Source: Ranitomeya imitator
Lineage: Eukaryota
DNA length: 64,000 nt
Assembly (NCBI RefSeq): GCF_032444005.1
Contig: NC_091283.1
Span: 739,660,001-739,724,000 of the forward strand
Direction: 5' to 3'
A model generated the notes under the pieces. The model did no database searches and was not told the DNA's origin. It saw only the letters and a list, made by a program, of their open reading frames with translations. Below, one piece after another: positions 3,878 through 63,238 of the stretch (within the stretch, counting starts at the first letter, position 1; each line of letters starts with the position of its first letter). The position numbers were made by a program, and so were the translations under genes.

Positions 3878-5319
3878 TAATATTTATTGCTGGGTTTTCT
3901 GTGAGATTTATATAGTTTATCTGTAGTCTTTATTTTATGGAGGAAGGAGCGAATACATATATCATTACAGGATCTAGACAGGGGTCTGTACATCTGACCA
4001 ACATACTGGAGGGAGCCCGACTTTTGCACCAGGGCCCGTAGGACTTTAGTTATGCCATTGTATGCACCTCTACTGTATATCCCTGGAAGATTTGACTTTT
4101 TTAGCAGTGTATTCCTATTCGGACATTCAGGATGTTACAGTGTAAAAAAAGGATATAGCTACTAAAGAATTCGGTGGAAAACTACACACAGAGTACAGTA
4201 TAGAAATGTTACTACACTTAATACAATAGCTAAAATGTAAGCTCCTATAAAGTCTTAGGCTAATGGGTTAAACATAGGGGTGATTCATTAAAAATTGCAG
4301 AGGGGTTTAGAGCAAATCTATTATTTTACCTTTAAAGATGTGATCTCTTCTTAAAATGTGCAAAATCTTCTGCCAAGGAGCAATCACACTGTCTCACTAT
4401 TTCCATTACATGAAAAATGAACGAAGGCGCAGATGTAAACCAATATAAACCACTTCACTTTTCTAAAGCATTTCCCCTTAGAGGTCACAGAAACATTTAA
4501 TACAATTTGCCTCCATGAAATGACTATTTTTCTATCTGTTGGATAAATAAAAGCTTTGTGTATGGCCGTGGTGTTAGATGCTTTATGGCTGTTATGTTTA
4601 TTTATGCAGCTGTGTGTATTTTCCACATATAGATCTGTGGGTTAGGAGTTATAGTTTTGGTCTCCTATAGTAATTCTTTTCACTTCTTCAGTGATCAGTA
4701 AATGACTTCTGTTTGTAGGAAAAAATGACTGGACTATGAATTGAATGAATTTTACCTAACAGATCAAAACAGATGGATTTCTATTTTTGAATGAGGAAAA
4801 TCGGCAGAATATTACTATACCAGCAAAATGTAAGAGATGTTGAGTACCGTATTTTTAACCTTTCTCGATCAGGTGATTCTTAGTTTTTGCATTTTAATTA
4901 TTTACTTCCCTTCTTCCAAGAACCATAACTTTTTACATTTTTGTTTCATGTAGTTTGTTTTTTGAGGGACACGATGTAGTTTTGAATAGTATCATTCATT
5001 TTACCATTCAATACATTGAAAAACGGAAAAATTCCATATGTGGTGAAATTGCTCAAAAACAACAATTTGGCAATTGTTTTATTTTTTTAATTTCCCTCTT
5101 ACAGCCTTTATTGTGCTTTAAAAATTACATGGCAATATGCTCAGTGCTATGTGAAACTTACATAACTTGGGTAATCATTTTCTGAGACCCATAACATTTT
5201 CGTATTTCCATCGACATATTCGTATGAGGGTTTGTTTTTTCTCCTTCTAATCTACAATGTCAAGCATAGTCTGTACTAAAAGTATAGCGTTGTGCAGTAC
5301 AGTACAAAAACACCTAAAT

Positions 5320-10033: not shown

Positions 10034-13000
10034 TGAGTTTTTTACCTCAGTATTTGTAAGCCAAAATCAAAAGTGGATAAAAATACTGAAGTGGTGACGT
10101 GTTTCTATTATACTTTTCCTCTGATTGTTCCACTCCTTGTTTTGACTTGCAGATACTGAGGTAAAATACTGACCAAATACTCAACTTGTGTATGTGGCCT
10201 AAGTCGAGTAAAAAGTGCGTATGTAAGGTGCGTTAGAGATACAATTTTCAGCCAAATGCTATGTGAGGTTAATGGGCACCTTATGGATTCTGGCAGCATT
10301 TAAGCATCTCTTAACATGGAAATAAGTGATAGAAAACTACCTTTATTATCTCACCCTGTCCCGTATGCCCTGAAGTAGAAGAGCATAGGAGACCTGACAC
10401 AGCCAATTAAAATAATTTAAGTATAGTCTGGGGCAACCATTACTTAAAGGTGAACACGATTCTAACATATTGCATGGATATTTAATTAATATATAACACA
10501 TGCTTTTCACAAAAAAAAAGAAAGAAACATTTCCGGACAATTTCCCAACAGTTAAGTTTGTTTTTTAAATGCATTATTAATGCTTCTTTGTCTCTCCTTC
10601 ATTCGTGAGGTCGCCTGGATGAAAAGTACACTAATGAAATTTTCTTGTAGAGGCGGACATCAGTTCAACAAAGGTCACAGGCTGACAATCACATATCAAA
10701 AGCTAAAAGGGCGACGCTAATCCCTTTATGCCATACAAATGATCTCCAGGAGGATCTAAGACACTCGCCCAGCTCTGTGTGCTCCAAAGCTTACTTACAG
10801 CAAGGCATCAGCAGTCACAACGAAGGGCCTTTTTGATGTAAAAGATGAAGTTTTATTTTACATGTCTGCATAGGAAATTAGTGGTTATGATCTAAAGGAT
10901 CCGCTTTATGCCATCAAGATATAGATAGGATTATATCCTCGCTAATTATCTGTTTACGGTATACTGTCAGAAAGTATTAGCTACATGTTTAAGACAGATG
11001 ATTATTTTCCAAGCGATCCTTGGATATAGAGAAATGCTCCAGACCTTATGACAGCGATACTTGAGAGGAAACATTCTAAACTCAACATATAATTATTTGC
11101 TGTTGCCTCATTTGCAAGTTTTTTATTAATGTTATTGGAATTGCCAGCATTACGCATCTAGTGGAGTTTTGTGAATTAGGGCTCGGCCACACAAATGATT
11201 TTCTTGAAAGAGTACTAATAGTGATTTTCATGGATAGCACTCATACCTTTGATATTCTATGAGCCTGTTTACATGTCCGATTCTTTCCTTGATCTGCGTA
11301 AAAAAATCAGAGACAGGTCCAATTTTGATCATGTTGGATCAAAATCACCAATTCAAGTCTATAGATTCATGAAAAAAATCAGACCTCACTCGGAAGACAT
11401 CCAAGTGCAGTCCAATTTTCATGGACTAACAGAGTCGAGAAACATAATATATTTTTTTTCCATGTATAAGAAAAACTGATGTCACTCTGATCAAACTGAG
11501 ATCGGAATAATTGGACCATTTTTCCTGCATGTGGGGAAAACGGTCGTGTGAACCTACCCTTGAGAAAATCTTTCCAGAGTCCTGTAAATTTTTCTTTTTC
11601 CAAAAGAGTTTGGAATTGGATTAAACAAATAAAAGAAGCAACACTCTTGTTCGTGTTCCACCTTGCTTGGTCTTTACTTTCAGAACCGAGAATGATGCCC
11701 CACCTCAGGGGTGTGGGACTGCTATAGACTATCCCCGGCTGGTCACAGTGTTGACTCGTTACGTGCAGTGATTGGCTGCAGTGGTCACATGTCCCTGGAA
11801 TTTAAAGTGAAAAAGAGGAATGATGATTCTCTAATGAAGCTTCACTATAAGATATCATACTCACTTGCGCGAAACTCGGATGAGTCTCGCACGGCAATAC
11901 CCGGCACTGCACCTGGCACAGAGGAGCGGAGCGTGCAGCTGCATGTATTCATATGCGGCCGCACACTCCGATCTGAGTGCTGGCAGCAGCGCCGGGTATT
12001 GCCGTGTGAGATTCATCCGAGTTTCGCACAAGTGAGTATGAGCCCTAACTCTAAATTTCTGAGATAACTTCTGAGATTAGTAATATCTGTCTTCAGCTTT
12101 TGGCTGAACATTAGAATGACTGCAGCTCACTATAAATGGAATGACATAGGCGGGCCGTTCATACAACAGGGGTCAATTTGTGCAGCTTTTATTTCTGTCC
12201 AGTGCTACATTAGAAGAGAAATACAGATGTGGCATGTGCTGGATTGTCGTCTAGTATAACACATTAATACAGCACCACTTGCTGGTGTCTATCAGGTTAC
12301 TGGGCTCTAAGCCTTGATTCACACGGCTGTATTACAGCTCCATGTGAACGCTATATATTTAGCAACAAAAATGAGATTGGAATCTGTCACGGAAAGCAGG
12401 GAAATGTTTCCCTAAAACCTTATCTTATATCTCTCCGACAGGATGTGAACATGTTTTTGATGCTAAATATATTGCTATCTGTTAGAGATGAGCAAATCAA
12501 TTTCATGTCAATTGAATTCGTTGCACCTGACAAATATGAACATTTTGATATTCAGCTCCTATGCCTCAACTTATGTGTCAGGCGCCATTTTACTCATTGC
12601 AAAACACTGCAATTGCCAAAGAAGGCTGATGCCTTGGAGCTCACATCATATAGTTATGTGCAGACTGTAAGAAGGTTATCATAACTTTATAAAAGCAGAA
12701 GCAGGAAATGCAGTTGCCATTTTGTGGTGAATCTGGATAGTGAGAGAACGTCACAACTCACAGTTTAGCCATATACTATAAAAGTGGAGAGAAAGCATAA
12801 AACAAAATAAACAAATTCTACAGATAATGTGTTGTAGCATAGCTTTACATCAGTATTTTTAAGCCAAAATCAAAAGCGGGTAGAAGTTGTGCATGTGTTT
12901 CTATTAGACTTTGATCCACTCTTGATTATGGCTTACAAATACTGATGTAAAATACTGACTAAATACTGAACGTGTGAATGTGACCTAAGGCTGTGTTTTC

Positions 13001-13612
13001 ATTAAAGAGCTTGAAAGGGGTTGTAATTAGTCCTATGAGACCTCAGAATGTTATACATGACAACTTAGGGCAATTGGAGAATTTGGTGAAGCAATTTTGT
13101 GAGGAAAGATTTGAATTTAGCTGTGATACAGAAATAGGTTTTTACAATAGAAAGCAGTGAATAGCTGTGCGATAAAACTGTATTTGGCAGCAGAGTAGAT
13201 GCAAAAGAGCAGCTCAGTGATAATCAATAAACCTTCCATATATATAATGCCCTACATATTAAAACACATAGGGTTTTACTTTACTCTGAGATTGTCTTTA
13301 GCTTAGCATTACCATTTGCACCATTTGTGCTTTCTCCTAGCAGCTAAGAATGCATTCTCCAACCAATTCACACAATGCAATACAGTAAAAAGAAAAGGAC
13401 AATTGCGCTACCTGGAAAAAAGAAATTGCCGTGCACTACAATATCTTTCATTAGCAATAAAAAGTGGAATTTCTAGACCTGAAAACGACCCTGCACGACA
13501 TCAATATATAGTGAATAATGGGGAAGTAATGGTGTAAACTGAATGGACAATGTACTCGCTTTGATCATTGCCATCTGTAAGGAGTCATTTTAGCTTATTG
13601 ATCCTTTAAAGA

Positions 13613-13892
13613 ATGTAAGCCCCCCCGCATAAACTGAAAATAAATAAAGCGGGGGTCTCATGTCCCCATGGACCTTGCTATGAGCTTAGTTTATTAGTTT
13701 TCCTCACTTTTTAGCAATGTAAATTTCAGTCAGAATCTATGTGATTCGTGACAGACTGTTTTTTTCCAGTTTTTGAGCGCTATTTTTCCCTGCATTTTCA
13801 TTGGTGGAGAGCGTTTTGGCGGTTTTTATTTATTTACAAATCTGACTGACAGCTGTCATTACCTCAGTTGCTGGCGCAAGAGCAACGAAGAG
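13613..13892 (+). repeat. Ngaro repeat A1
   Basis: Direct copy at 18616-18895, offset 5003. Confidence 0.95.
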
Positions 13893-13905
13893 GTACCACG
13901 CTGCC

Positions 13906-15393
13906 ATGGAGAAGCTATTCCAGGAAGTTTTAGCTAGGGCAGGTGGCCAGGATGGCTTAGGCTGGCTAAAAAGCTGCCTAGCAATGAAGGAAACGCCGGT
14001 GGGCACTGAAGTTATCCCTCCTCCTACCGAACCGGAGGCATTCCCCCCACTTTCAAGCCCGGTACCTGCCGCCCAGCCAGCGTCGAGCGCTGTATCGCGC
14101 TCCAGGAGGTCAAGGTCTGTCTCAGCGGCAGCGGCGGATTCTCCGGCGCCCAAGCGTAGCCAACGTGACGCCGGAAATAAACCGTGACGCTGCGCCTCAG
14201 CGAAGTCCCGCAGCCCGGCGAGAGATGTCGGCCGTCGCCCCTTAGATGAACCGGCGACGTCATCTCAAGCAGCCGGAAAGGCAGGAGTGGGGCAGGGCCG
14301 TAAAAGCGCTGCGGTCCCCTCCTGCTCTCTCTCCAGAGCGGCCATCTTTGCATCGGACCTGCAGGGAAGGTCGGCTCCAGCGGCTGCTGCACAGTCCTCA
14401 GAAGATGAAGAGGATCTTCAATCAAGTTCCTTCAGAGAGCCGCGCTCGCCTAATCCCATGGGCTTGAGCGCAAGCATTTCTGGTGAGCGTCGCCGGGAGG
14501 TACAGCCTGACAGGGGTGAGAACATTAATCAAATTTTACTTAATAGTGAATTGAGGGATTTTATCAAATCAGTAGTGTGTGAAGCTATGGGGGATGTTGT
14601 ACCCACTCCCCCTCCCCTTCCCTCATCCGTTCCTAAGATTACTATTGACTCTATGCGTATCGATACGCCTTCTATAGCTTCCATCCCATTAAATCCTTTT
14701 AAAGAGGCTCTAACTTGTGAACTGTCTCCACTTGGTTTCCATTTAAGTTCCTCGGTTAAGGAGCTTATTTGGAACAATAATTTTATCGATATATTTTCTC
14801 TTATCCCTCGCAGAGATCAGCCCCCGAAGTCTGATAAAAAAGAGGACAGAGCAGATTCTGAGGATAGTAGGCGTAACATTAGATCGTTTAACAACTGGAT
14901 ACAAGCCTTTGCTATATACGCTGCAGTTTTGGGGGAGAAATCCCCTAAGCTTTGCAGTAGCTTGTTTCAGCACGTCGATATTATCTTAGAAGCTTATAGA
15001 AATTTCGGCTGCTCTGCTTGGCTTCACTATGATGAGGCTTTTAGGCATAAGCTATCTGTTCACCCTGAGGTTAAATGGGGTACGAAAGATATCGGGTTGT
15101 GGATTAACCTCATGCTGCCGTCAAGACAAGTCGCGGGTAGGCAAACGGTTAATTCCTTTCCTAAAAGAGGCGTCTGCTTCGCCTTTAACGAATCCTTTTG
15201 CAAATGGAGTAATAATTGCCGGTTCAGGCACGAGTGCTCCTTCTGTGGTAATGCCCATCCGATGTCCAAATGCTTTAAGAAGCAGGCAGCCCAGCAATCT
15301 GCAAGTAAGGATCCTAACCCAAAAGGCCCGGACGCCAGTGAATTTGGAAAATATGGTTCACTGGCTAAACAGATTCCCAAACAAGGAGAGTAG
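13906..15393 (+). CDS. Ngaro Gag-like ORF1, interrupted by one in-frame TGA (14185-14187)
   Basis: ORFs 13906-14187 and 14287-15393 share a frame, separated by a single TGA (probably CGA>TGA). The C-terminal zinc finger CFAFNESFCKWSNNCRFRHECSFCGNAHPMSKC is C-x7-C-x5-C-x3-H followed by C-x2-C-x3-H-x4-C. Confidence 0.85.
14480..14488 (+). promoter_or_regulatory. Predicted 5' splice donor CTG|GTGAGC (phase 1) inside gag
   Basis: Close to consensus; falls after the first G of the Gly codon 14482-14484. Confidence 0.65.
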
Positions 15394-16907
15394 TCAGCTC
15401 TTGTTTGAGGGTTTTTATGATGGCTTTCATGTACCCCAGTTCAAAGGGAAGGGTTGCATTATAGTAAATAATTTATCCTCCATTTCTGCTTTTCCAGAAG
15501 TTGCTAGGGAAAAAATCCATAATGAGTTAGTATTAGGTAGGGTGGCTGGCCCTTTTATGTCCCCCCCCTTTTTAAATTTTCGCATCTCACCTCTGGGGGT
15601 CGTACCTAAAAAAGATTCCGGTTCATTTCGTTTAATTCACCATCTTTCGTATCCGCCAGGCCACTCTTTAAATGATGAAGTTGATAAGGAATGTTGTTCA
15701 GTTTCTTACTCTTCCTTTGACGGTGCATTGGATTTGCTAAGGAAATTCGGTTCCTTTGCATTAATGGCGAAATCCGATATTAAATCGGCTTTTAGGATTC
15801 TACCAGTTCACCCTATGGGTTTTAACTCATTAGGTTTCCATTTTGATGGCTGTTTTTTTTTTCGATAAATGCCTCCCAATGGGCTTTTCATTGTCATGCT
15901 TTTACTTCGAGACGTTTTCCGTTTTTTTGCATTGGATTTTACAATCCAACAGTAAGGAAGCAGGGATATTGCACTACCTGGATGATTTCCTTTTCATAGG
16001 TCCTCCTCATTCACTTGTATGTCAGGACACATTTTTTCGAATGTGCTCTCACTTTGGCGTTCCTATCGCGATTGATAAAACTGTTGGCCCTTGTAATCGA
16101 ATTGAATTTTTAGGCATCACAATCGATTCTGAAAAAATGGAAGCTATTCTCCCTGAGGATAAGGTTGCCAAGCTGCGTGCTTCTCTTTCTGAATTTTTGT
16201 CTAAGGATAAAATCTCTCTCAAAGATCTTCAAGCGCTTTTAGGCCTGCTGAACTTTGCTCTTCAGGTAATTCCAATGGGCCGAGTCTTTTCTAGGAGTTT
16301 GTACGAAGCCACCAAAGGTTTTTCTTCACCTAAATGCCATATTCGAGTTCGCTCTGAGCTCAAGGAGGACGCTAGAATTTGGCTGTCATTTTTGTCCGAT
16401 TTTAATTGTAAATCGGTTTTACAATCTCCTTTTATCAATGCGGATTCTATTCCTCTGGTTTTCTCCGCAGATATTTCCTTAGGTGTCAGCTTGGTATGTT
16501 CATCTCATTGGGTTCGCTTGAATTGGCCTGATGATTCCGATATTATCAGGGTCATGAATAATTCTCTGCTCTTAGAGCTTTTTGCAATTTTTTCACTTAT
16601 CTTCATCTGGGGCAAAAACTTGCAAAATTCAAGAATTCTGTTGTTCTCCTCTAACCAAGCAGTCGTTTTTGCCATCAACACCCTTTCTTCAAAGAATCGT
16701 CAGGCCGCAAAGATTTTGAGACAACTGGTTTTTCTATGTTTGAAAAACAACGTATGGCTGAAGGCGAAAGTGGGCTATAGCAAATTTAAATCGTTAACTG
16801 AGATGTTATTGAATAGTCAGTGGACTAATTTTTCCCAACAGGTTCCGCTAGCAGACAAGGAAGCGACCCATTGTCCTCCATCAGTTTGGGACGTGATCTC
16901 AGCCTAG
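15029..16907 (+). CDS. Ngaro reverse transcriptase / RNase H-like ORF, +1 frameshift in a T10 run (15853-15862)
   Basis: Motifs ISPLGVVPKK, FRLIHHLSYP, AKSDIKSAFR, CLPMG and HYLDDFLF. Removing one T joins ORFs 15029-15868 and 15843-16907. The frame overlaps the gag 3' end. Confidence 0.92.
16823..16841 (+). promoter_or_regulatory. Predicted branch point and 3' splice acceptor upstream of YR
   Basis: GACTAATTTTTCCCAACAG|G. The YR frame is closed by TAA 16826-16828 and opens here. Confidence 0.65.
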
Positions 16908-17794
16908 TTCCGCATTTTATTGAAAATTCCCTGTCCAAACGATCGTGGGCTGACTACTCGGCCGCATGGAAAAAATGGTCTGATTTTTGTGTTCTTCACG
17001 GGTTTAATGCATTGACTTCCGACCCTTTTGTTGCTCTGCAATTTGCGGAATCTTTACTTAAGAAGAATTTATCTTACTCTGCGTTAGCAAAATGCTTCGC
17101 AGGAGTCTCCTTTTTCCTGAAGGCCCACGGGGAATCTGCGTTGACTGACCTCCTTCTGGTTAAACAATTCTTGAAGGGCCTAAAACGAGAGAATTTTGTA
17201 CCAGCTCCAGACGTCCCATTTCCCTGTCGTTGCTAAGAAACATTTGTTCAGTGCTGATTAATGTCTGCTCAAACCCAGAGGAAGCACTGTTGTTTAACGC
17301 CATATTCTTAATTTGTTTTTTTGGAGCTCTTAGAGTCGGCGAGATAGTGTCTTATAAGAAAGCTGAGCCATCCGGGCTCAGGCTGGAGGACGTTAAAATT
17401 TTTGATTCCCTCCTTTTAGTGTTTATTAGAAGTTCTAAAACAGATCAAATGGGAAGAGGTAGTGAAATTTGTTTGAAATCTTTTGATGACAAAACTATTT
17501 GCCCAGTTTTTAATTTTTCCAAATGGATTGTGGTTAGGCCTGCGGTGCAGGGCTCGTTGTTTTTGCATAAAGATGAATCACCAGTCACTGTATTTCAGTT
17601 CAATTTTATTTTGAAAAAATGTCTATCTTTTTTGGGAAAGAGTCACCTCAGGATATCCTCTCATTCGTTTAGGATAGGTGCGGCTACGGAAGCCTCTAGA
17701 GCCGGCTTATCTGATGCCAGAATCAAAAAAAATGGGTAGATGGGAATCGAATCGTTTTAAACTGTACGTTCGACATCATTTATATGCTGACTAA
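16842..17794 (+). CDS. Tyrosine recombinase (two frameshifts: -1 near 17204, +1 in the A8 run 17725-17732)
   Basis: Catalytic motifs FFGALRVGE (R), RSSKTDQ (K), SHSFRIGAA (HxxR) and, after repairing the A run, MGRWESNRFKLYVR (W, Y). Stop TAA at 17792-17794. Confidence 0.92.
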
Positions 17795-17812
17795 TTATTT
17801 ATTTTCTTTTAG
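17787..17812 (+). promoter_or_regulatory. Predicted branch point and 3' splice acceptor upstream of the hydrolase
   Basis: CTGACTAATTATTTATTTTCTTTTAG|G. The hydrolase frame is closed by TGA 17788-17790. Confidence 0.7.
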
Positions 17813-18402
17813 GTCCAAATATTGTTTGGATTGTTGGCCATTCCTTTATTTTCTGGGCCCAGAAGAGGGCTAGTCAGCGTTGTTACTCGGAGAATCTGTC
17901 CTTTAACCCTTCCATTACGCAGGTCTACTGGCATAGCATCCGTGGACTGAAGTGGGCTTCTTTGGTGCATGAGCTAAATAATTGTTTGTTGAAATTTCCA
18001 TACCCGGATTTATTAATCATTCATCTTTCTGGGAATGATCTTGGGAAGATCAATACGCATAATTTATTAGCGGCCATGCGGTCTGATCTTATTTTTTTGA
18101 AACAAAAATTTCCATTTTCTTGTCTCGTTTTTTCCGAGATCATTCCCAGACTTTTTTGGCAGCAACAGCAGTTTGCTTTTATGGATAAAATTCGTAAAAG
18201 GGTAAACCGTGAAATGATGAAATTTTTTCCCCTTTTAGGAGGCTTTTCTTTTAGGCATGTGGATTTAGAGGGGTTTTTACCTGGTCTGTTTAGACAAGAT
18301 TTGGTTCACTTGTCCAACATAGGACTTGACATTTTTAATCTGAACTTGGGCAACATAGTTGAAAAATGGCTGTGTGGTTTGGGGGGGCCTCGACTCTGTT
18401 AG
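17813..18402 (+). CDS. SGNH/GDSL-like hydrolase domain, uninterrupted and lacking its own start codon
   Basis: Block I is VWIVGHSF (Ser codon 17842-17844), then IRGLKW, block III HLSGNDLG, and block V RQDLVHL (DxxH). The first Met lies downstream of the nucleophile. Confidence 0.85.
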
Positions 18403-18412
18403 TCTTGGCCTT

Positions 18413-18621
18413 GTGGGATAAATCACCCATGTATGGGTGGATTTGGACATTTGGAATTTTTGGAGAATTTTAAATATGTTATTTCGGAAGTTTATTTATT
18501 GGAAGTATTTTATGGTATTTTATGTAACCCTGAATAAAACCGCACGGCCATTTTATTCCACTTTAAATTAAATCTGTGTCCAGAGTGTTTATTTCGGCAT
18601 GGGTTCTATGGGGACATGTAA
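18413..18621 (+). repeat. Ngaro repeat B1
   Basis: Direct copy at 18948-19143. B1 has 14 extra nt (18598-18611). Confidence 0.93.
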
Positions 18622-18895
18622 GCCCCCCCGCATAAACTGAAAATAAATAAAGCGGGGGTCTCATGTCCCCATGGACCTTGCTATGAGCTTAGTTTATTAG
18701 TTTTCCTCACTTTTTAGCAATGTAAATTTCAGTCAGAATCTATGTGATTCGTGACAGACTGTTTTTTTCCAGTTTTTGAGCGCTATTTTTCCCTGCATTT
18801 TCATTGGTGGAGAGCGTTTTGGCGGTTTTTATTTATTTACAAATCTGACTGACAGCTGTCATTACCTCAGTTGCTGGCGCAAGAGCAACGAAGAG
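18616..18895 (+). repeat. Ngaro repeat A2
   Basis: Copy of 13613-13892. Confidence 0.95.
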
Positions 18896-18947
18896 CCCAC
18901 CCTCCCTCCCTTTATGTCATCGTTCCTCCTGTCGTGTGGTTTTAATC

Positions 18948-19143
18948 GTGGGGATAAATCACCCATGTATGGGTGGATTTGGACATTTGGAATTTTTGGA
19001 GAATTTTAAATATGTTATTTCGGAAGTTTATTTATTGGAAGTATTTTATGGTATTTTATGTAACCCTGAATAAAACCGCACGGCCATTTTATTCCACTTT
19101 AAATTAAATCTGTGTCCAGAGTGTTTATTTCGGGGACATGTAA
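18948..19143 (+). repeat. Ngaro repeat B2
   Basis: Copy of B1, ending GGGGACATGTAA. Confidence 0.93.
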
Positions 19144-19342: not shown

Positions 19343-20341
19343 GGCCAGTCTCACACGTCCCAATAATTCCGGTACCGGAAAAATCGGTACCGGAATTATC
19401 CGTGTCCGTGTGCTTACCATGAACTTCAGTGTGGCACACGTGCGGCAGCGGTGTGCCGCCTGTGTGCCAACTGGGTACCACACGGACCATGCAGGAGACA
19501 GTGCTACAAGTAAGCGCTGTCCCCTGCATCTGGTGCTGAAGCCGCCATTCATATCTTCTCTCCAGCAGCGTTCGCTAGAGAAAAGATATGAAAAATCCTT
19601 TTTTTTTTTTTTCGTGTTTAAAATAAAGATCCCTGTCCCCTCCCCCCTCCTGTGCGCCCGGCCGCTGTTACTAAAATACTCACCCGGCTCCCTCGAAGCG
19701 TCCTCTCCGCGCCGCACCATCTCCTGTATGAGCGGTCACGTGGTGCCACCCATTACAGTCATGAATATGCGGCTCCACCTCTATGAGAGGTGGAGCCGCA
19801 TATTCATGACTGTAATGGGGGGCACCATGTGACCGCTCATACAGGAGAAGCTGGCGCTGAGAGGACGCTGTGAGGGAGCCGGCTGAGTATTTTGTTAACA
19901 GCGGGCGGGCGCACAGGGGGTGGGAGGGGGGTGGGGACAGGGATCTTTATTTTAAACACGAAAAAAAAAGGATTTTTCATATCTTCTCTCTAGCGAACGC
20001 TGCTGGAGAGAAGATATGAATGGCGGCTTCAGCACCACGCTGGGAGGACAGCACTTACTGTAGCGCTGTCTCCTGCACGGCACACGGACTGCACACGGAC
20101 AGCGTCCGTGTGCGGTACGTGTTTTACACGGACCCATTGACTTTAATGGGTCCGTGTAATCCGTGCGCTCCCACGAACACTGACATGTCTCCGTGTTTTG
20201 CACATGGACACACGGTCCGTGAAAACACGCTGACATGTGCAGAGACACATTGATTTCAATGTGTCTACGTGAGTCAGTGTCTCTGGTATGTGAGGAAACT
20301 GACACCTCACGTACCGGAGCCACTGACGTGTGAAACCGGCC
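19343..20341. mobile_element. Harbinger-like non-autonomous element with long internal inverted repeats
   Basis: TIRs GGCCAGTCTCACACGTC and GACGTGTGAAACCGGCC. Segment 19500-19760 is inverted at 19810-20070. Confidence 0.75.
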
Positions 20342-20350
20342 ATAGATATA

Positions 20351-20546
20351 GGCTGGGGTCACACTTGAGAGTGTGATGCAAGAAACTTATCAATACCCGG
20401 CACTGCCGCCAGCACTCAGACCGGAGCATGCGGCTGCATCTATGCAGCTGAACGCTACGTTACTGAGAGCTGGTAGTAGTGCCGGGTATTGATGCGAGAG
20501 ACTCGCGTGAGTTTCTCGCATCACACTCGCAAGTGTGACCCCGGCC
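20351..20546. mobile_element. Small Harbinger-like MITE
   Basis: ATA-GGCTGGGGTCACACTTG...CAAGTGTGACCCCGGCC-ATA. Confidence 0.75.
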
Positions 20547-50707: not shown

Positions 50708-51590
50708 CTGTCATGGCCAAAAGTATTCACACCCCTGCAATTCTGTCAGATAATACTCAGTTTCTTACTGAAAATGATTGCGAACACAAATTATTTGGTA
50801 TTATTATCTTCATTTAATTTGTCTTAAATGAAAAAAACACAAAAAGAACTGTCCTAAAGCCAAATTGGACATAATTCCACACCAAACATAAAAAAGGGGG
50901 TGGACAAAAGTATTGACACTGTTCGAAAAATCATGTGATGCTTCTCTAATTTGTGTAATTAACAGCACCTGTAATTTACCTGTGGCACCTAACAGGTGTT
51001 GGCAATAACTAAATCACACTTGCAGCCAGTTGACATGGATTAAAGTTGACTCAACCTCTGTCCTGTGTCCTTGTGTGTACCACATTGAGCATGGAGAAAA
51101 GAAAGAAGACTAAAGAACTGTCTGAGGACTTGATAAACCAAATTGTGAGGAAGCATGAGCAATCTCAAGGCTACAAGTCCATCTGCAAAGACCTGAATGT
51201 TCCTGTGTCTACCGTGCGCAGTGTCATCAAGAAGTTTAAAGCCCATGGCACTGTGGCTAACCTCCCTATAAGTGGACGGAAAAGAAAAATTGACAAGAGA
51301 TTTCAACGCAAGATTGTGTGGATGTTGGATAAAGAACCCCGACTAACATCCAAACAAGTTCAGGCTGCCCTGCAGTCCGAGGGTACAACAGGGTCAACCC
51401 ATATTATCCGTCGGCATCTGAATGAAAATGGACTGTATGGTAGGAGACCCAGGAAGACCCCACTTCTTACCCCGAGACATAAAAAAGCCATGCTGGAGTT
51501 TGCCAAAATTTACCTGAAAAGGCCTAAAACTTTTTGGAAGAATGTTCTCTGGTCAGATGACACAAAAGTAGAGCTTTTTGAGCAAAGGCA
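50708..51590 (+). mobile_element. 3'-truncated Tc1-like transposon
   Basis: TA followed by a TIR-like CTGTCATGGCCAAAAGTATTCACACCCC, then the transposase 5' half. Confidence 0.85.
51091..51590 (+). pseudogene. Tc1 transposase N-terminal half (HTH domains to the first catalytic Asp region)
   Basis: MEKRKKTKELSEDL...VPVSTVRSVIKKFK...GRKRK...WKNVLWSDDTKVELF, then runs into unrelated sequence. Confidence 0.88.
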
Positions 51591-53157
51591 TCTTACAGAT
51601 GCACCTTTTCTGGGGTGGCTGGGGGCAGATGTTTTTAGCCGGGGGGGCCAATAACCATGGTCCCTCTCTAGGCTATTAATATCTGCCCTCAGTCACTGGC
51701 TTTCCCACTCTGGAGGAGAAAATTGCACTGGAGCCCACACAAGTTTTTTCCGTGCTTTAACCCTTTATTTTAACACCTAGAGCTCCAAAGTTTTGCGCAC
51801 ACACACTACTAACATAATTAGTGAGGAATATGTACAAATATAATGGATATGAAATGGTTTACTGTATGTAAACCATGTCTCATATCCTGTCGGGTTTGAA
51901 AAGGAGTTAGCAAAAGCCGACAATTGAATTACCAGGTTTTATGCTGTCTAGCTCTTTATTAAATATAAATATATATATATATGTGTCTAGCTTTGGAGAA
52001 AATATTGCATCCTCGCATTGAATACAGATCACTGTTCAGGAACTTTTCTGCCTATCTCGGCCGTAAAAACGGACTGTATTTTTATATGTTAGGTCTGACC
52101 CCGGCCTAAAGCAGGAAAAGTTGTCAGCTGGCACAAGACCGTAACTATGCAAATTGCATACTTGTGGCCGCATGATCGCTTGCTTGATCAGACAACTGAG
52201 TGTAATCCTGACAGTGTGCACATAGAAGATTATTAGGATTTACAGTCACATAGCTTGACTAGAGAAATTAAGCTGAAGTCTGGTAAACTCCTTTAAATAA
52301 TACAAATTATATGATAAAATTATTTGTGCAACTATAAATGTCATGTTACATTGTATCCCAAAGTACTGCATTTATATGTTTAATGTGTGCAACTGAACTG
52401 TATGTCTGTATAATGTTTTATCTGCACAAAAATTAAAAGTAATTGACAGCAACACCCAACCATCATATTACAATAATGTACAGAGAGGACTGACAGCATG
52501 TGCTGCCGCTACTTAGAAACCAGTAGCATGTGCAGAACATGTGTATCTCAACATGATAACCCCATGATCGCCATGTATCTTAAGATGCTTTAAAGAGCTA
52601 CAGTGTTTTGTACATTTATAGGAACACCACGGGATATGGCATAAATGTATAATAGATGCAAATCTCACCAAGGGGTGTCGTATCTATCTAAAATACAGGG
52701 CTTCATTGCATGCTGCTTTTTAATGGAGCAGTGGTCAGAGTATGCATGCAAATGAATTGGAATTCTCGAACGTTTCCCCTATTTCAAGAACGACCTGTTC
52801 TTGAAATAGATGCATATTTGGCATATCCTTTGAATTTTCCATAGATTTACTGTAGATGTCAACAAAGATATAACTCTATGCCCCTCCATCTACACTGTGG
52901 CAATACTGGGTTTAATGAGATCCAATTGATGGAGAGTGATCGACTTCTCTGGTGCTGCTGTCCGGTTGGAATCCCGCAGGACAGTGACAGGAATGTGTTG
53001 GATGAATGAACTTTCTCACTGAAGATTTTATTAATCAGTGAAATAGTCTGTATTATCATTAGTTTGTTTTATTTATTATTATAAGAAATAACATGTGTAG
53101 GCACAGCATGTTTGCGAGCTGAGCCAACATCTTCATCAGATCCATACGTAAACATTA

Positions 53158-58285: not shown

Positions 58286-61200
58286 TCACCCAGCGTGAAG
58301 AAAGGGATCCACTCGCTGCTGACCAGTATAGGCTTTACAGGCAGAAGCTGGAGAAGCAGCAGTCACACTTCTCACAGAGTCAGACTGAGCGAGACGCTGG
58401 GATCGACGTCCCTGCTGAGCAGGCTCCACTGCGGCTGGAGGAGAATGGGAGACCGCAGCGGAGACGGATCGAGATTCCCCCTGTGCAGCAGAGGAAACTC
58501 GACTCCTAACATTACCCCCCCTCCTAGGGCCCCCCCCTCCTTGGGCCTCGCTACGTTCGAAGGCAGCAATGAGCTGTGGGGCCCGAATGTTTTCAGCAGG
58601 CTCCCATGACCTGTTCTCTGGACCATAACCCTTCCAATCCACCAGATAGAACTTTTTGCCGCGTACCACCTTACACCCCAAAATAGCGTTCACCTCGTAA
58701 TCGTCCGTAGACGTAGACGAACCCGATGTCCCGGCAGATGACTCGGAAAACCGGGACATGTATACGGGTTTCAAGAGGGACACATGAAAGGTGTCGGTGA
58801 TACCCAAGCGTGGAGGAAGAGCCAGGCGGTAGACCACAGGATTAACCGGTTCGAGAACCTTGAAGGGACCCAAGTAGCGAGGCACAAACTTAGTGGACTC
58901 AACTCGCAGCCTGATGTTACGGGCGGAGAGCCACACCAAGTCGCCAGGAGCAAAGGTCGGAGTGGGGCGCCGATGAACATCGGCGGAGGACCTCATTCTC
59001 TCCTTGGAAGCCCGAATGGCATCCTGAGTGCGATCCCAAATGTCCCGTGCCTCCACAGCCCAGTCTGCCACCCTGGAATCGGCGGAAGACACGGGCATGG
59101 GCACAGGTACCCGCGGATGCTGACCATAGTTAAGGAGGAATGGGGTCTGTCCAGTGGAGTCAGCTACAGCATTGTTAAGAGCAAACTCCGCCCACGCTAG
59201 CAAAGATGCCCAGTCATCTTGTTTAGCAGAGACAAAATGTCGCAGATATGTGACCAAGGTCTGGTTGGCTCTCTCCACCAACCCATTCGTCTCGGGATGA
59301 TATGCCGAAGAGAGATTCAACTCGATACTGAGAAGGCGACAAAGCTCTCTCCAGAACCGAGACGCAAACTGGGGACCCCGGTCACTGACAATTTTGTCTG
59401 GCATACCGTGAAGACGGAAGATGTGTTTAACAAACAATGCTGCCAAGGCCCGTGCAGAAGGTAGCCGGGGAAGCGGCACCAAATGCACCATTTTAGAAAA
59501 ATGGTCGGTGATAACCCAAATGACAGTACAGCCACGTGACTTGGGCAAACCCACCACAAAGTCCATCCCGACCATCTCCCAGGGCCTGTCTGCCACTGGC
59601 AGAGGGTATAACAACCCAGCTGGCCGTTGACGGAGAGACTTATTTTTGGCACAAGAGACACATGCCCGAACGTAGTCTCCAACGTCACGAACCATATGTG
59701 GCCACCAATACATTCTCGCCAACAACTCAGATGTCCTCTTTGCCCCAAAGTGTCCACCCACTCTGGACGAATGAGCCCACGAGAGAACCTCCGGACGCAA
59801 ATTGATGGGGACAAAAGTCTTGCCCGGAGGCACAGACTCAAGCGAAACCGGAGCTACGGTTCTCAGACTCTCTGAAGGGACAATGAGCCGAGGCTCGTCC
59901 TCCTCCTCCACAGTTGACACCAGGGAGCGAGAGAGAGCGTCAGCACGAATGTTCTTCTCCCCGGCGAGATAATGTAGAGTGAAGTGGAACCGGGAGAAAA
60001 ACAAGGACCATCTGGCCTGACGAGAATTCAGCCGCTGGGCTGTCTGTAAATAGACCAAATTCTTGTGGTCCGTGAAGACTTGGAATGGGAACCGAGCACC
60101 CTCCAAGAGATGTCTCCATTCCGAAAAGGCCAACTTCATTGCCAGCAACTCCCTATCCCCGATGGAGTAATTTCTCTCCGCTGGTGAGAAGGTTTTTGAG
60201 AAGAAGAAGCATGGATGCTTCCGACCTTGAGCATCCTTTTGATAGAGGACTGCTCCTGCACCAACGGAAGAGGCATCCACCTCCATTAGGAATGGCTTAT
60301 CCACATCGGGATGATGTAAGATGGGAGCGCTAGCAAAGTGGGACTTAATAGAAGTGAAGGCCTTGGAGACCTCTTCGGACCACGATTTAGGATTCGCTCC
60401 CTTCTTGGTGAGGGATACAAAGGGAGCTACCAGGGTTGAGAAGTGGGGGATGAACTGACGATAGTAATTTATGAACCCCATAAAGCGCTGCACCGCTTTC
60501 AGAGAATGGGGTTCCTGCCAGTCCATCACTGCCTGTAGTTTAGCAGGATCCATAGCCAATCCCTGGGCCGAGATGATGTAGCCCAGGAAAGGTAAAGACT
60601 CCTGCTCAAACATACACTTCTCCAATTTGGCATAGAGGAAGTTTGCCCGTAGGAGGTCGAAGACTTTGCAAACATCTCTCCGGTGGGAGTCAATATCTGG
60701 AGAGTAGATAAGAATATCATCCAGATAGACTACGACCGAGGTGGAAAGCATATCCCGGAAGATATCGTTCACAAAGTCTTGGAAAACGGCTGGGGCATTA
60801 CAGAGCCCGAAGGGCATCACCAGATATTCATAGTGCCCATCCCTGGTGTTAAAGGCCGTCTTCCATTCGTCCCCCTCACGGATGCGAATCAGGTTGTAAG
60901 CACCCCGCAAATCTAATTTAGTAAATACCCTTGCTCCCCGAAGTCTATCGAATAACTCAGATATCAAGGGCAAAGGATACTTATTCTTAACGGTGATGGC
61001 GTTAAGACCCCTGTAGTCTATGCATGGGCGCAATTCCCCATTCTTCTTCTGCACGAAGAAGAACCCTGCCCCAGCAGGTGACACTGACTTCCTAATGAAT
61101 CCTCTTGCCAGATTTTCCTGGATGTACTGTGACATTGCCTCCATCTCCGGGAGAGATAGCGGATAAACTCGACCCCGGGGAGGCTCAGCACCAGGCAAGA

Positions 61201-62659
61201 GATCAATAGGACAGTCATAGGGGCGATGAGGCGGAAGGACCTCCGCCGCCTTTTTGGAGAACACGTCTGCATAAGACCAATACTGCTTGGGGAGAGAGGA
61301 TAGATCTGCGGGTACCTCAGTAGTAGCAACCTGAACGCACTCCCTCTGACACCTACCCCCACAAGATTCACCCCAACCCAGAATTCTGCCTGAGGACCAC
61401 TCGATATGAGGAGAGTGGTACCGTAGCCAAGGTATTCCCAACAGGACCTCATCAATTCCTTCCGGAATGACGAGCAGAGAAATTATCTCCTGATGAGATG
61501 GCGACATGGACAGAGTAAAAGGGATGGTCTGGTGTGTTATCTGTGAGGGCAATGTCGACCCATTCACCACTCGCACCGTTACTGGTTGAGCAAGCATAAC
61601 CAGGGGTATTGCGTGACGTTGGGCAAAGGCAGAAGACATAAAATTGCCCTCCGCCCTAGAATCCACGCAGAGCTCTACCGAGTGGGAGAATGAGTCAATA
61701 GTAATTGTCCCCTTAAAGGACAACTTAGAGGCAAACGTCGCCGTGTCTAGTGTACCTCCACCTACTACCACTAGACGCTGACGTTTCCTCGACCGCTGAG
61801 GACATCTGGTGGCTAGATGTCCTGACTGCTGGCAAACATGACAGACCCTGAGTGCACAAGCGGTCCGGGACTTAGATCCTGCTTGTGACACTTCCCTGGC
61901 CTCATGTGACTCAGGAACCAGGACCGGAAATTCCAGAGGTTTGGCGAAAGTAGAAGCCAGCCGAAACCTCTGCCTACACTGGGCTCGCTCTAACCTCCGC
62001 TCGTTAAAACGGAGGTCAATTCGAGTGGAGACAGTTATTAACTCCTCCAGTGTGGCAGGAATCTCCCTAGTGGCCAGAGCGTCCTTTACGTGGTGAGCCA
62101 AGCCCCTCCAAAATATGGGAATAAGAGCTTTATCCGACCAATCCAGCTCAGATGCTAAGGTGCGGAATTGGACGGCAAAATGACTGACCAAGGACTCACC
62201 CTGAGTTAATGCCAGCAATTGGAGCGCAGTATCATGGGTGACTTGAGGTCCTAAAAAGACCTGTTTCAGAGCGCTCAGAAACAGCGGAGCACTCTGCACC
62301 ACATGATCGCCACGCTCCCACAGCGGCGTAGCCCATTCCAACGCCCTGTACGACAATAGAGACAGAATAAATCCCACCTTAGCCCGCTCTGTGGGAAAAC
62401 GTGTAGCCAGGAGCTCGAGGTGAATAGAGCACTGACTCACAAATCCCCTGCAAAACTTGCTATCACCAGAAAATTTTTCTGGCAGCGGGAGGCGAGATAA
62501 TGTCGGAACAGGGGTGGCAATGGACGTAGTAGCTGCAGCTACGCTGGCAGCCTGTACAGCTACTGCAGTAACATCCACAGCTGAGGTCGCGCTCTCGAGA
62601 GCCGCCAACCTACCCTCCAGCTGCTGGATATGCCGCAGAGATTGCTGTTTGTCTGTCAT
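58286..62659 (-). CDS. Gag-Pol polyprotein: gag, CCHC knuckle, protease, RT, RNase H, integrase, chromodomain
   Basis: CHVCQQSGHLATRC; VDSRAEGNF (DSG changed to DSR); LRPCIDYRGLN; YLDDILIYS; DAS/ELLA/TDHKNL/ADALSR; HHCC and D,D,E integrase; YLGPFKV; YEVNAIL...YLVDWKGYGPENRSWEP. Confidence 0.96.
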   Translation of the reverse strand: MTDKQQSLRHIQQLEGRLAALESATSAVDVTAVAVQAASVAAATTSIATPVPTLSRLPLPEKFSGDSKFCRGFVSQCSIHLELLATRFPTERAKVGFILSLLSYRALEWATPLWERGDHVVQSAPLFLSALKQVFLGPQVTHDTALQLLALTQGESLVSHFAVQFRTLASELDWSDKALIPIFWRGLAHHVKDALATREIPATLEELITVSTRIDLRFNERRLERAQCRQRFRLASTFAKPLEFPVLVPESHEAREVSQAGSKSRTACALRVCHVCQQSGHLATRCPQRSRKRQRLVVVGGGTLDTATFASKLSFKGTITIDSFSHSVELCVDSRAEGNFMSSAFAQRHAIPLVMLAQPVTVRVVNGSTLPSQITHQTIPFTLSMSPSHQEIISLLVIPEGIDEVLLGIPWLRYHSPHIEWSSGRILGWGESCGGRCQRECVQVATTEVPADLSSLPKQYWSYADVFSKKAAEVLPPHRPYDCPIDLLPGAEPPRGRVYPLSLPEMEAMSQYIQENLARGFIRKSVSPAGAGFFFVQKKNGELRPCIDYRGLNAITVKNKYPLPLISELFDRLRGARVFTKLDLRGAYNLIRIREGDEWKTAFNTRDGHYEYLVMPFGLCNAPAVFQDFVNDIFRDMLSTSVVVYLDDILIYSPDIDSHRRDVCKVFDLLRANFLYAKLEKCMFEQESLPFLGYIISAQGLAMDPAKLQAVMDWQEPHSLKAVQRFMGFINYYRQFIPHFSTLVAPFVSLTKKGANPKSWSEEVSKAFTSIKSHFASAPILHHPDVDKPFLMEVDASSVGAGAVLYQKDAQGRKHPCFFFSKTFSPAERNYSIGDRELLAMKLAFSEWRHLLEGARFPFQVFTDHKNLVYLQTAQRLNSRQARWSLFFSRFHFTLHYLAGEKNIRADALSRSLVSTVEEEDEPRLIVPSESLRTVAPVSLESVPPGKTFVPINLRPEVLSWAHSSRVGGHFGAKRTSELLARMYWWPHMVRDVGDYVRACVSCAKNKSLRQRPAGLLYPLPVADRPWEMVGMDFVVGLPKSRGCTVIWVITDHFSKMVHLVPLPRLPSARALAALFVKHIFRLHGMPDKIVSDRGPQFASRFWRELCRLLSIELNLSSAYHPETNGLVERANQTLVTYLRHFVSAKQDDWASLLAWAEFALNNAVADSTGQTPFLLNYGQHPRVPVPMPVSSADSRVADWAVEARDIWDRTQDAIRASKERMRSSADVHRRPTPTFAPGDLVWLSARNIRLRVESTKFVPRYLGPFKVLEPVNPVVYRLALPPRLGITDTFHVSLLKPVYMSRFSESSAGTSGSSTSTDDYEVNAILGCKVVRGKKFYLVDWKGYGPENRSWEPAENIRAPQLIAAFERSEAQGGGGPRRGGNVRSRVSSAAQGESRSVSAAVSHSPPAAVEPAQQGRRSQRLAQSDSVRSVTAASPASACKAYTGQQRVDPFLHAG

Positions 62660-62675
62660 CACTAGCCAGACCCTG

Positions 62676-62686
62676 GCGCTAGTGTA
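62676..62686 (-). promoter_or_regulatory. Primer-binding site TACACTAGCGC (self-priming type)
   Basis: Lies 1 nt inside the 5' LTR end and is complementary to 63249-63239. Confidence 0.8.
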
Positions 62687-63238
62687 ATTTTAGGACTGGC
62701 AGAACGCACCAAGAGAGATGATATAGATGCGTTCGCAGTCCGGGGTCCACCGTGCAGGTGAAACCTGCTGCTAGAAAATGACAGACAATATGGCGGTATT
62801 CAAAAGTATACACGCGTGGGTTAAACCTCACCCAGCGTGAAGAAAGCGATCCTGTTGCGTCACAGGACCGCTGTACCGCACATAAAGCGCGAGCAAGTGG
62901 TCAGCGAACTAAACCCCAACAGGGATTATAGTCCGATTAGACCCTTGCTGGCACTACACCGCTACTGGGTGTGAAAGGAATTATAATTAAGGCACCGAAG
63001 TGCGAACTGTGCCGTGCTGGCAGGCACCACTAAGCACCCAGACGTGGGTCAGGAAGCGCACACTGGCGCGTGGCACCGCACTGGCGGTCACAGCAGTAGA
63101 CGCTGACACGTGTGTGACACGTTGAGTGATAAGTCGGGCGCTAGATAGCAGCCATACTCCATACGCGAACAAACATACAATAGGGTAGGGGTATTTAAAG
63201 AACGACTTGCACTCACAACAAACACACGTATTAAATTG

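Follow-up and report, generated by a model that had tools for sequence, protein, structure and literature searches.

Retrotransposons of the Ngaro type belong to the DIRS order, and those described from amphibians, such as DIRS-53_XT of Xenopus, have split direct repeats in the arrangement A1-ORFs-B1-A2-B2 (ORF, open reading frame), with overlapping frames for Gag, reverse transcriptase and RNase H (RT/RNase H), tyrosine recombinase (YR), and an extra SGNH hydrolase (passages of PMC9210276). For YR, Poulter and Butler (2015) are cited as favoring a ribosomal frameshift (passage of PMC13003380), and neither a shared splice donor, nor leader-tagged enzymes, nor a processed derivative figures among the passages on amphibian Ngaro elements in PMC9210276 and PMC13003380. 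The element considered here occupies positions 13613-19133 of a 64,000-nucleotide stretch of the Ranitomeya imitator genome (NC_091283.1, positions 739,660,001 to 739,724,000, forward strand), hereafter the window, in whose numbering all coordinates are given. Comparison with its relatives indicates that frog Ngaro elements likely rely on one transcript, with one conserved splice donor in gag and two alternative acceptors, one for YR and one for the hydrolase.

The use of one 5' donor with several 3' acceptors, next to an unspliced genome, is familiar from the env genes of retroviruses and gypsy elements, the pol gene of foamy viruses, and the accessory mRNAs of complex retroviruses. Unlike retroviruses, Ngaro elements have neither long terminal repeats nor a DDE integrase, and, as their donor is placed some 200 codons into gag, each product would have a long Gag leader. 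One founding paper on Ngaro or YR elements reportedly mentions introns in some YR elements, so that splice-based Ngaro expression is regarded as new only provisionally. A literature search, with the founding papers outside its scope, returned no account of splicing-based expression in Ngaro or DIRS elements; the string 'splic' does not occur in PMC9210276 (without its supplements), PMC3266345, PMC3783388, or PMC8547959, and the passages available from PMC7192593, PMC6681497, PMC4495291, PMC9341512, PMC12477816, PMC13465315, and PMC4157794 deal with other matters. In plants, the short-gag RNA of Ty1/Copia elements likewise involves a conserved alternative splice, a subgenomic RNA, and the balance between proteins (passages of PMC5580714). 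There, however, spliced RNA encodes Gag and unspliced RNA the enzymes, whereas in Ngaro unspliced RNA would encode Gag and spliced RNAs would encode two enzymes according to the 3' site.

The copy in the window is a Ngaro retrotransposon, all of whose features lie on the forward strand. Self-comparison reveals the split direct repeats A1 (13613-13892) and A2 (18616-18895), 280 nt long and 100% identical, and B1 (18415-18597) and B2 (18951-19133), 183 nt long and 100% identical, in the order A1...B1-A2-B2. Between them come gag, RT/RNase H, YR, and the hydrolase. The gag ORF (13906-15393, ATG at 13906) encodes a two-helix N-terminus (residues 1-27) that is conserved in protein alignments, a linker rich in Ser, Pro, Arg, and Ala, and a Gag core with Cys/His motifs. 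The RT/RNase H region (14990-16907), in the +1 frame relative to gag and overlapping its 3' end, is a candidate RT and RNase H of the DIRS type by its YLDDF motif and its position, its two split pieces in the window having no Pfam match at E<=0.05. YR follows it, in place of a DDE integrase, and matches PF00589 (E=5.5e-07) in the near-identical copy L035. An SGNH ORF comes after YR, as in amphibians, with no methyltransferase; the end of the RNase H frame at 16907 leaves no space for such a domain, as judged from the frame layout with no methyltransferase profile run. The hydrolase (exon 17813-18402) displays GHS, G, GND, and DLVH blocks, and its catalytic blocks are invariant in the homologue alignment. 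The window protein has no Pfam match, while its homologue P0005 matches PF13472 and a structural model of P0001 has SGNH fold matches; by its sequence, the Ngaro hydrolase is a putative SGNH esterase. The window copy itself is decayed: its RT/RNase H frame is broken near 15853 and its YR frame at two places, near 17204 and 17725, and an in-frame TGA at codon 94 of the leader (14185-14187) means that it can make neither spliced product.

The Gag Donor and the Hydrolase Acceptor

Conservation was scored in 79 further loci from the same genome, which together with the window form 23 clusters (subfamilies) at 88% identity of the hydrolase DNA. With the locus L125 and copies devoid of the scored region left out, 79 of the 80 copies were scored for the hydrolase, 59 for the donor, and 69 for YR, the first in 23 subfamilies and the other two in 18. 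A second, distant clade of 14 loci, at about 40% protein identity, was treated apart from these counts. The copies are kin, and the counts do not represent independent trials; the donor score is based on vertebrate splice-site frequencies.

The sequence-only reading had proposed that YR and the hydrolase share the phase-1 donor CTG/GTGAGC (14480-14488, exon end 14482, the slash marking the splice point). That motif is present, and it joins both acceptors in frame, but it is not conserved: a GT is found there in 21 of 59 copies and 2 of 18 subfamilies, with GA instead in the tier of 78% identity. Confined to young subfamilies, it could at most serve as a local alternative donor. The conserved site, overlooked in that reading, is the phase-1 donor GGG/GTGAGA (14513-14521, exon end 14515), 33 nt downstream. 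An NG/GTGAG motif homologous to it is found in 56 of 59 copies (17 of 18 subfamilies), 52 of them in phase 1 to the Gag core and 4 out of phase; it is absent from the remaining 3. In a poorly conserved linker, the donor codons are invariably GGT GAG in all 16 representative copies, whereas the other conserved Gly (7) and Glu (7) columns all use mixed codons (fixed codons in 0 of 14), so that the conservation of the donor exceeds chance. In the window's subfamily, 14515 is fairly likely to be the main donor. This donor yields a leader of 203 codons and a hydrolase product of 399 residues, and not the approximately 192 and 388 residues first proposed.

At the other end of the predicted intron, the branch motif CTGACTAAT with the TGA at 17788, a pyrimidine tract, and the acceptor TAG/G at 17812 (17787-17812) are present as had been described. 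In the window copy no Met precedes the catalytic residues of the hydrolase, the first one in frame (18076) lying after the GHS serine and the GND asparagine. Of 79 copies, 72 have the AG at the homologous position; the exceptions are one copy with GG and six, all from one cluster, that have lost it but offer an in-phase AG 9 nt farther on. The gene model P0001 uses this downstream AG, and an in-phase acceptor is found in 22 of 23 subfamilies. The mean pyrimidine fraction at -22 to -4 of the acceptor is 0.75. In most cases 16-21 nt separate the YR stop from the AG, and the hydrolase frame occurs in all three phases relative to YR while the phase of the AG is kept, so that no single frameshift or readthrough could serve. 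The features of a U2-type GT-AG intron are thus assembled here, namely a conserved GT donor, a branch-like motif, a pyrimidine tract, an AG, and a conserved phase.

An apparent product of this splice has been found as a genomic copy. In a search of the same genome with the database protein P0003, L125 was the sole contiguous match among 102; all 39 other matches in the junction region stop at query base 248 or begin at 246. L125 is a recent copy of a sister subfamily in which the gag leader is joined to the hydrolase in frame, in phase 1, and which keeps A1-B1-A2-B2 with repeat identities of 99.7% and 100%. Its junction uses the homologue of the 14515 donor, and its right breakpoint coincides exactly with the hydrolase acceptor. 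In L139, L142, L143, and L144 the segment missing from L125 is 3300-3304 nt long, begins with GTGAG, and ends with YAG exactly at the junction; in L141, the fifth relative compared, the donor-side sequence for this junction was not found. Exact removal of the hydrolase intron is therefore seen in a product, that of the sister subfamily. The simplest reading is that a spliced RNA was copied back by the proteins of a full-length element. It had also been suggested that splicing would keep subgenomic RNAs apart from the full-length template, which does not fully hold, since L125 shows that spliced RNA with both ends can be copied back. Patterns designed on the junctions of splice products gave 0 matches in the same genome, against 21 for an unspliced control pattern. 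Five further junction-pattern matches were false, being GT>GC variants that lie mostly in internal repeats and lead to neither YR nor hydrolase.

Database proteins have the same structure. The sequence-only reading had suggested a search for frog proteins with a Gag leader and an SGNH domain, and 11 of the 13 longer hydrolase homologues proved to be frog RefSeq models, from 7 species, in which a low-complexity linker connects the Gag N-terminus with the hydrolase. Of these models, P0001, P0003, and P0004 map to the same genome at 99-100% and hence are not independent of it; excision of a phase-1 GT-AG intron (3291-3587 nt) with a donor of the 14515 type recovers each of them without a mismatch. 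In a large protein library, 53 of 150 hydrolase homologues pass a crude, uncurated leader filter, and a protein search with the leader alone returned nothing at E<=1e-8. Contigs over 13600-18610 (four sets, of uncertain kind) have no joint at the predicted sites, and the donor region is almost uncovered; some of them cross each acceptor unspliced, and the joints seen are those of the B1-A2 and A2-B2 repeats and two non-GT-AG skips. Splicing to the hydrolase acceptor is very likely, and this arm of the programme is close to proven. The same splice in the window's subfamily would remove an intron of 3297 nt and yield the 399-residue product.

Several other hydrolase-bearing proteins are of a different kind. 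P0084 and similar proteins of 900-2100 residues, as well as P0012, P0091, and P0049, are host-type proteins that end in this hydrolase; among such proteins are a fish protein with weak cold-shock matches and RING/B-box, UEV-domain, and multi-hydrolase proteins, which possibly reflect exon capture or domestication.

The Predicted Recombinase Acceptor

The YR exon (16842-17794, stop TAA at 17792-17794) comprises 316 codons in uninterrupted relatives. As the earlier reading had it, the window carries the candidate branch motif GACTAAT with the TAA at 16826, a pyrimidine tract, and the acceptor CAG/G at 16841 (16823-16841, within RNase H codons), and no Met precedes the catalytic residues of YR in this copy; the first one, at 17449, follows the arginine of GALRVGE. 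Of the 69 copies scored, 53 share the AG at this position, as do 13 of the 18 subfamilies. By a lax test, an in-phase YAG within -30 to +6 of the site, the figures rise to 65 of 69 copies and 18 of 18 subfamilies. Splicing to this acceptor would remove 2326 nt and give a product of about 520 residues, and both predicted introns take out the RT/RNase H region.

Among the longer YR homologues, 9 of 12, from frogs and two lizards, have by eye a low-complexity N-terminal part joined to YR without RT, and in P0041, P0043, and P0044 the join coincides with donor and acceptor motifs of the distant clade. In Hyperolius, two models labelled as isoforms, XP_068106721.1 (X1) and XP_068106722.1 (X2), come from a contig of equal length and are identical over 321 N-terminal residues before they continue into YR and the hydrolase, respectively. 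RefSeq isoforms of this kind normally rest on transcript alignments. Exact removal of the YR intron is seen in gene models only, and in none of the genomic copies scored. The proposal of one gag donor with alternative in-phase acceptors is thus strongly supported for the hydrolase, by the processed copy and RefSeq models, and moderately for YR, by acceptor conservation and RefSeq models. Splicing to YR is considered likely.

Two loci were considered as processed leader-YR copies and rejected. L186 (G000:C8:5923000-5931000, junction near 5009, reverse strand) has terminal repeats and a 1291-codon open gag-YR frame created by a 1.5-kb RT/RNase H deletion; on the right the deletion stops 2 nt away from the YR acceptor, but on the left it lacks a GT, and the locus lies in a tandem-repeat array. 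L058 has a deletion from the leader to the middle of YR whose ends are off the splice sites.

RT may lie outside the splicing programme and be expressed another way, from unspliced RNA. By eye, no conserved acceptor was found at the 5' end of RT. The gag 'RHE' codons (15250-15270 in the window and homologues elsewhere) create an RT-frame ATG in many subfamilies, the window not among them, and this ATG lies about 34-37 codons before a conserved PV motif.

Proposed Mechanism and Alternatives

In the mechanism proposed, the element would make one transcript with a single conserved phase-1 5' splice site in gag, at 14515 in the window. Unspliced RNA would encode Gag and act as the replication template. 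Use of the acceptor that follows the YR stop would produce a Gag-leader/SGNH-hydrolase protein of about 400 residues, and splicing to the in-phase acceptor in the 3' end of RNase H a Gag-leader/recombinase protein of about 520 residues. Both enzymes would then carry the two-helix N-terminus and the disordered basic linker without the Gag core, the leader supplying the start codon and targeting them to the ribonucleoprotein of the element. The model of P0001 has helices at 2-12 and 17-26 and low confidence at 30-195; that the leader functions as a targeting tag for the enzymes may be so, with the balance slightly on the other side. The splicing programme is probably real and functional.

A number of observations weigh against it. 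The YR acceptor sits within RNase H codons and shifts between clades, the requirement for an in-phase YAG within 36 nt is lax, and a count of CAG at this site in 14 of 14 copies came from representatives picked for carrying it. Among 126 scored YR matches, 8 long-frame candidates were examined as possible processed leader-YR copies, and none proved to be one. L125 is a lone case, from a sister subfamily, and 3 nt of microhomology are present at its junction. Its origin by a microhomology-driven DNA deletion is possible, and by a rough estimate about 1 in 1000 catchable deletions would hit both sites. Searches of the genome and of proteins yielded no processed copy or database model for the window's own subfamily. 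RefSeq models are predictions and may be noisy, and some contain other joins, with a donor inside YR or with YR fused to the hydrolase. Finally, early in-frame Met codons occur in relatives.

The alternative that survives best is that the hydrolase is spliced while ribosomes translating the RT/RNase H frame shift by -1 to reach YR, as Poulter and Butler (2015) are cited as favoring (passage of PMC13003380). YR is indeed in the -1 frame and overlaps the end of RNase H, 6 copies of the cluster to which the window's element belongs have T-TTT-TTC directly behind the YR-frame stop, and the failure to find a processed leader-YR copy fits this explanation. However, a slippery heptamer at the overlap is found in 3 of 18 subfamilies and is missing from the window, whereas an in-phase YAG is present in all 18, and frameshifting does not account for gene models in which the leader precedes YR, including an isoform pair with the leader of the hydrolase. 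On this evidence a frameshift is improbable.

Alternatively, the splice might be real but cryptic or driven by the host, with no role for the element, and the models might reflect over-prediction on noisy transposon RNA. Such noise could explain the joins from a donor in YR to the hydrolase (P0114, P0186, P0198), from YR to the hydrolase (P0038, P0095), and from RT to YR, and only one processed copy is known. It would not be expected to preserve the position, phase, and wobble bases of the donor among subfamilies whose hydrolases are only about 55-65% identical. Moreover, the distant clade possesses a phase-1 donor of its own, located 158 nt upstream of the Gag core in 12 of 14 loci, as well as in-phase acceptors ahead of YR and the hydrolase. 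A splice without function is therefore very unlikely.

Least credible of all is the expression of YR and the hydrolase from their own ATGs, by reinitiation or internal promoters, with splice-like motifs as by-products of codon constraints and AT-rich spacers: early Met codons, which had been named beforehand as evidence against splicing, occur for YR in one or more copies from 11 of 18 subfamilies and for the hydrolase in 8 of 23 (before its serine, in two of them directly before GHS), but those of YR range from -47 to +17 codons from the acceptor, none lies near the YR start in 7 of 18 subfamilies, several subfamilies including the window's have none, and neither the fixed donor codons nor the exact L125 deletion would be explained.

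Some of the unusual joins form groups of their own. P0114, P0148, P0186, P0196, P0198, and P0199 join an initial segment of YR that ends at a 'YG' motif to the hydrolase, a hint that the distant clade has another donor within YR and RNAs that are spliced twice. In P0038 and P0095 YR continues into the hydrolase as one chain, which may reflect a splice, a fusion, or an annotation error.

Related Esterases, Implications, and Surroundings

A protein resembling the predicted leader-hydrolase has been described in the non-LTR retrotransposon ZfL2-1, in whose ORF1p a helical N-terminal segment and basic sequence likewise precede the SGNH domain (passages of PMC3905857). The likeness is one of analogy, as the ZfL2-1 esterase (PDB 4C1B) is encoded in one unspliced ORF and has a proven dimerizing coiled coil and lipid binding. 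PDB 4C1B was the top sequence match, at a non-significant E=0.1, and a fold match of the P0001 model at E=1.1e-04.

If splicing operates as proposed, neither the 'YR ORF' nor the 'hydrolase ORF' on its own represents a natural protein, which bears on biochemical work and on the role of the hydrolase. Exact junctions, a 400-residue leader-hydrolase, and a 520-residue leader-recombinase would take the place of an assumed frameshift, and host splicing would become a control point on Ngaro elements. Splicing also predicts intron-less non-autonomous derivatives, of which L125 is one, and a class of 'uncharacterized' frog RefSeq genes would be explained as transposon transcripts. A broader scheme can be offered tentatively, in which alternative 3' splicing from one gag donor would be the general expression code of Ngaro elements in frogs and lizards. 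The N-terminal helix pair would be a reusable tag that brings a recombinase and a membrane-binding esterase to the Gag particle, spliced RNAs would found non-autonomous families, and the phase-1 acceptor of the hydrolase exon would account for the recurrent acquisition of this exon by host genes.

On either side of the Ngaro copy are long, nested inverted repeats of the kind seen in miniature inverted-repeat elements (19509-20059, 11855-12041, and 20351-20546). Farther away, the window contains an N-terminal fragment of a Tc1-type transposase (51034-51654, forward strand) and a chromodomain Ty3/gypsy element with a 1466-codon open frame for gag, protease, RT, RNase H, integrase, and chromodomain (58286-62689, reverse strand). 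Elsewhere in the genome, groups of near-identical Ngaro copies at G000:C1:1017.19-1017.59 Mb and C2:624-627 Mb probably arose by segmental or tandem duplication.

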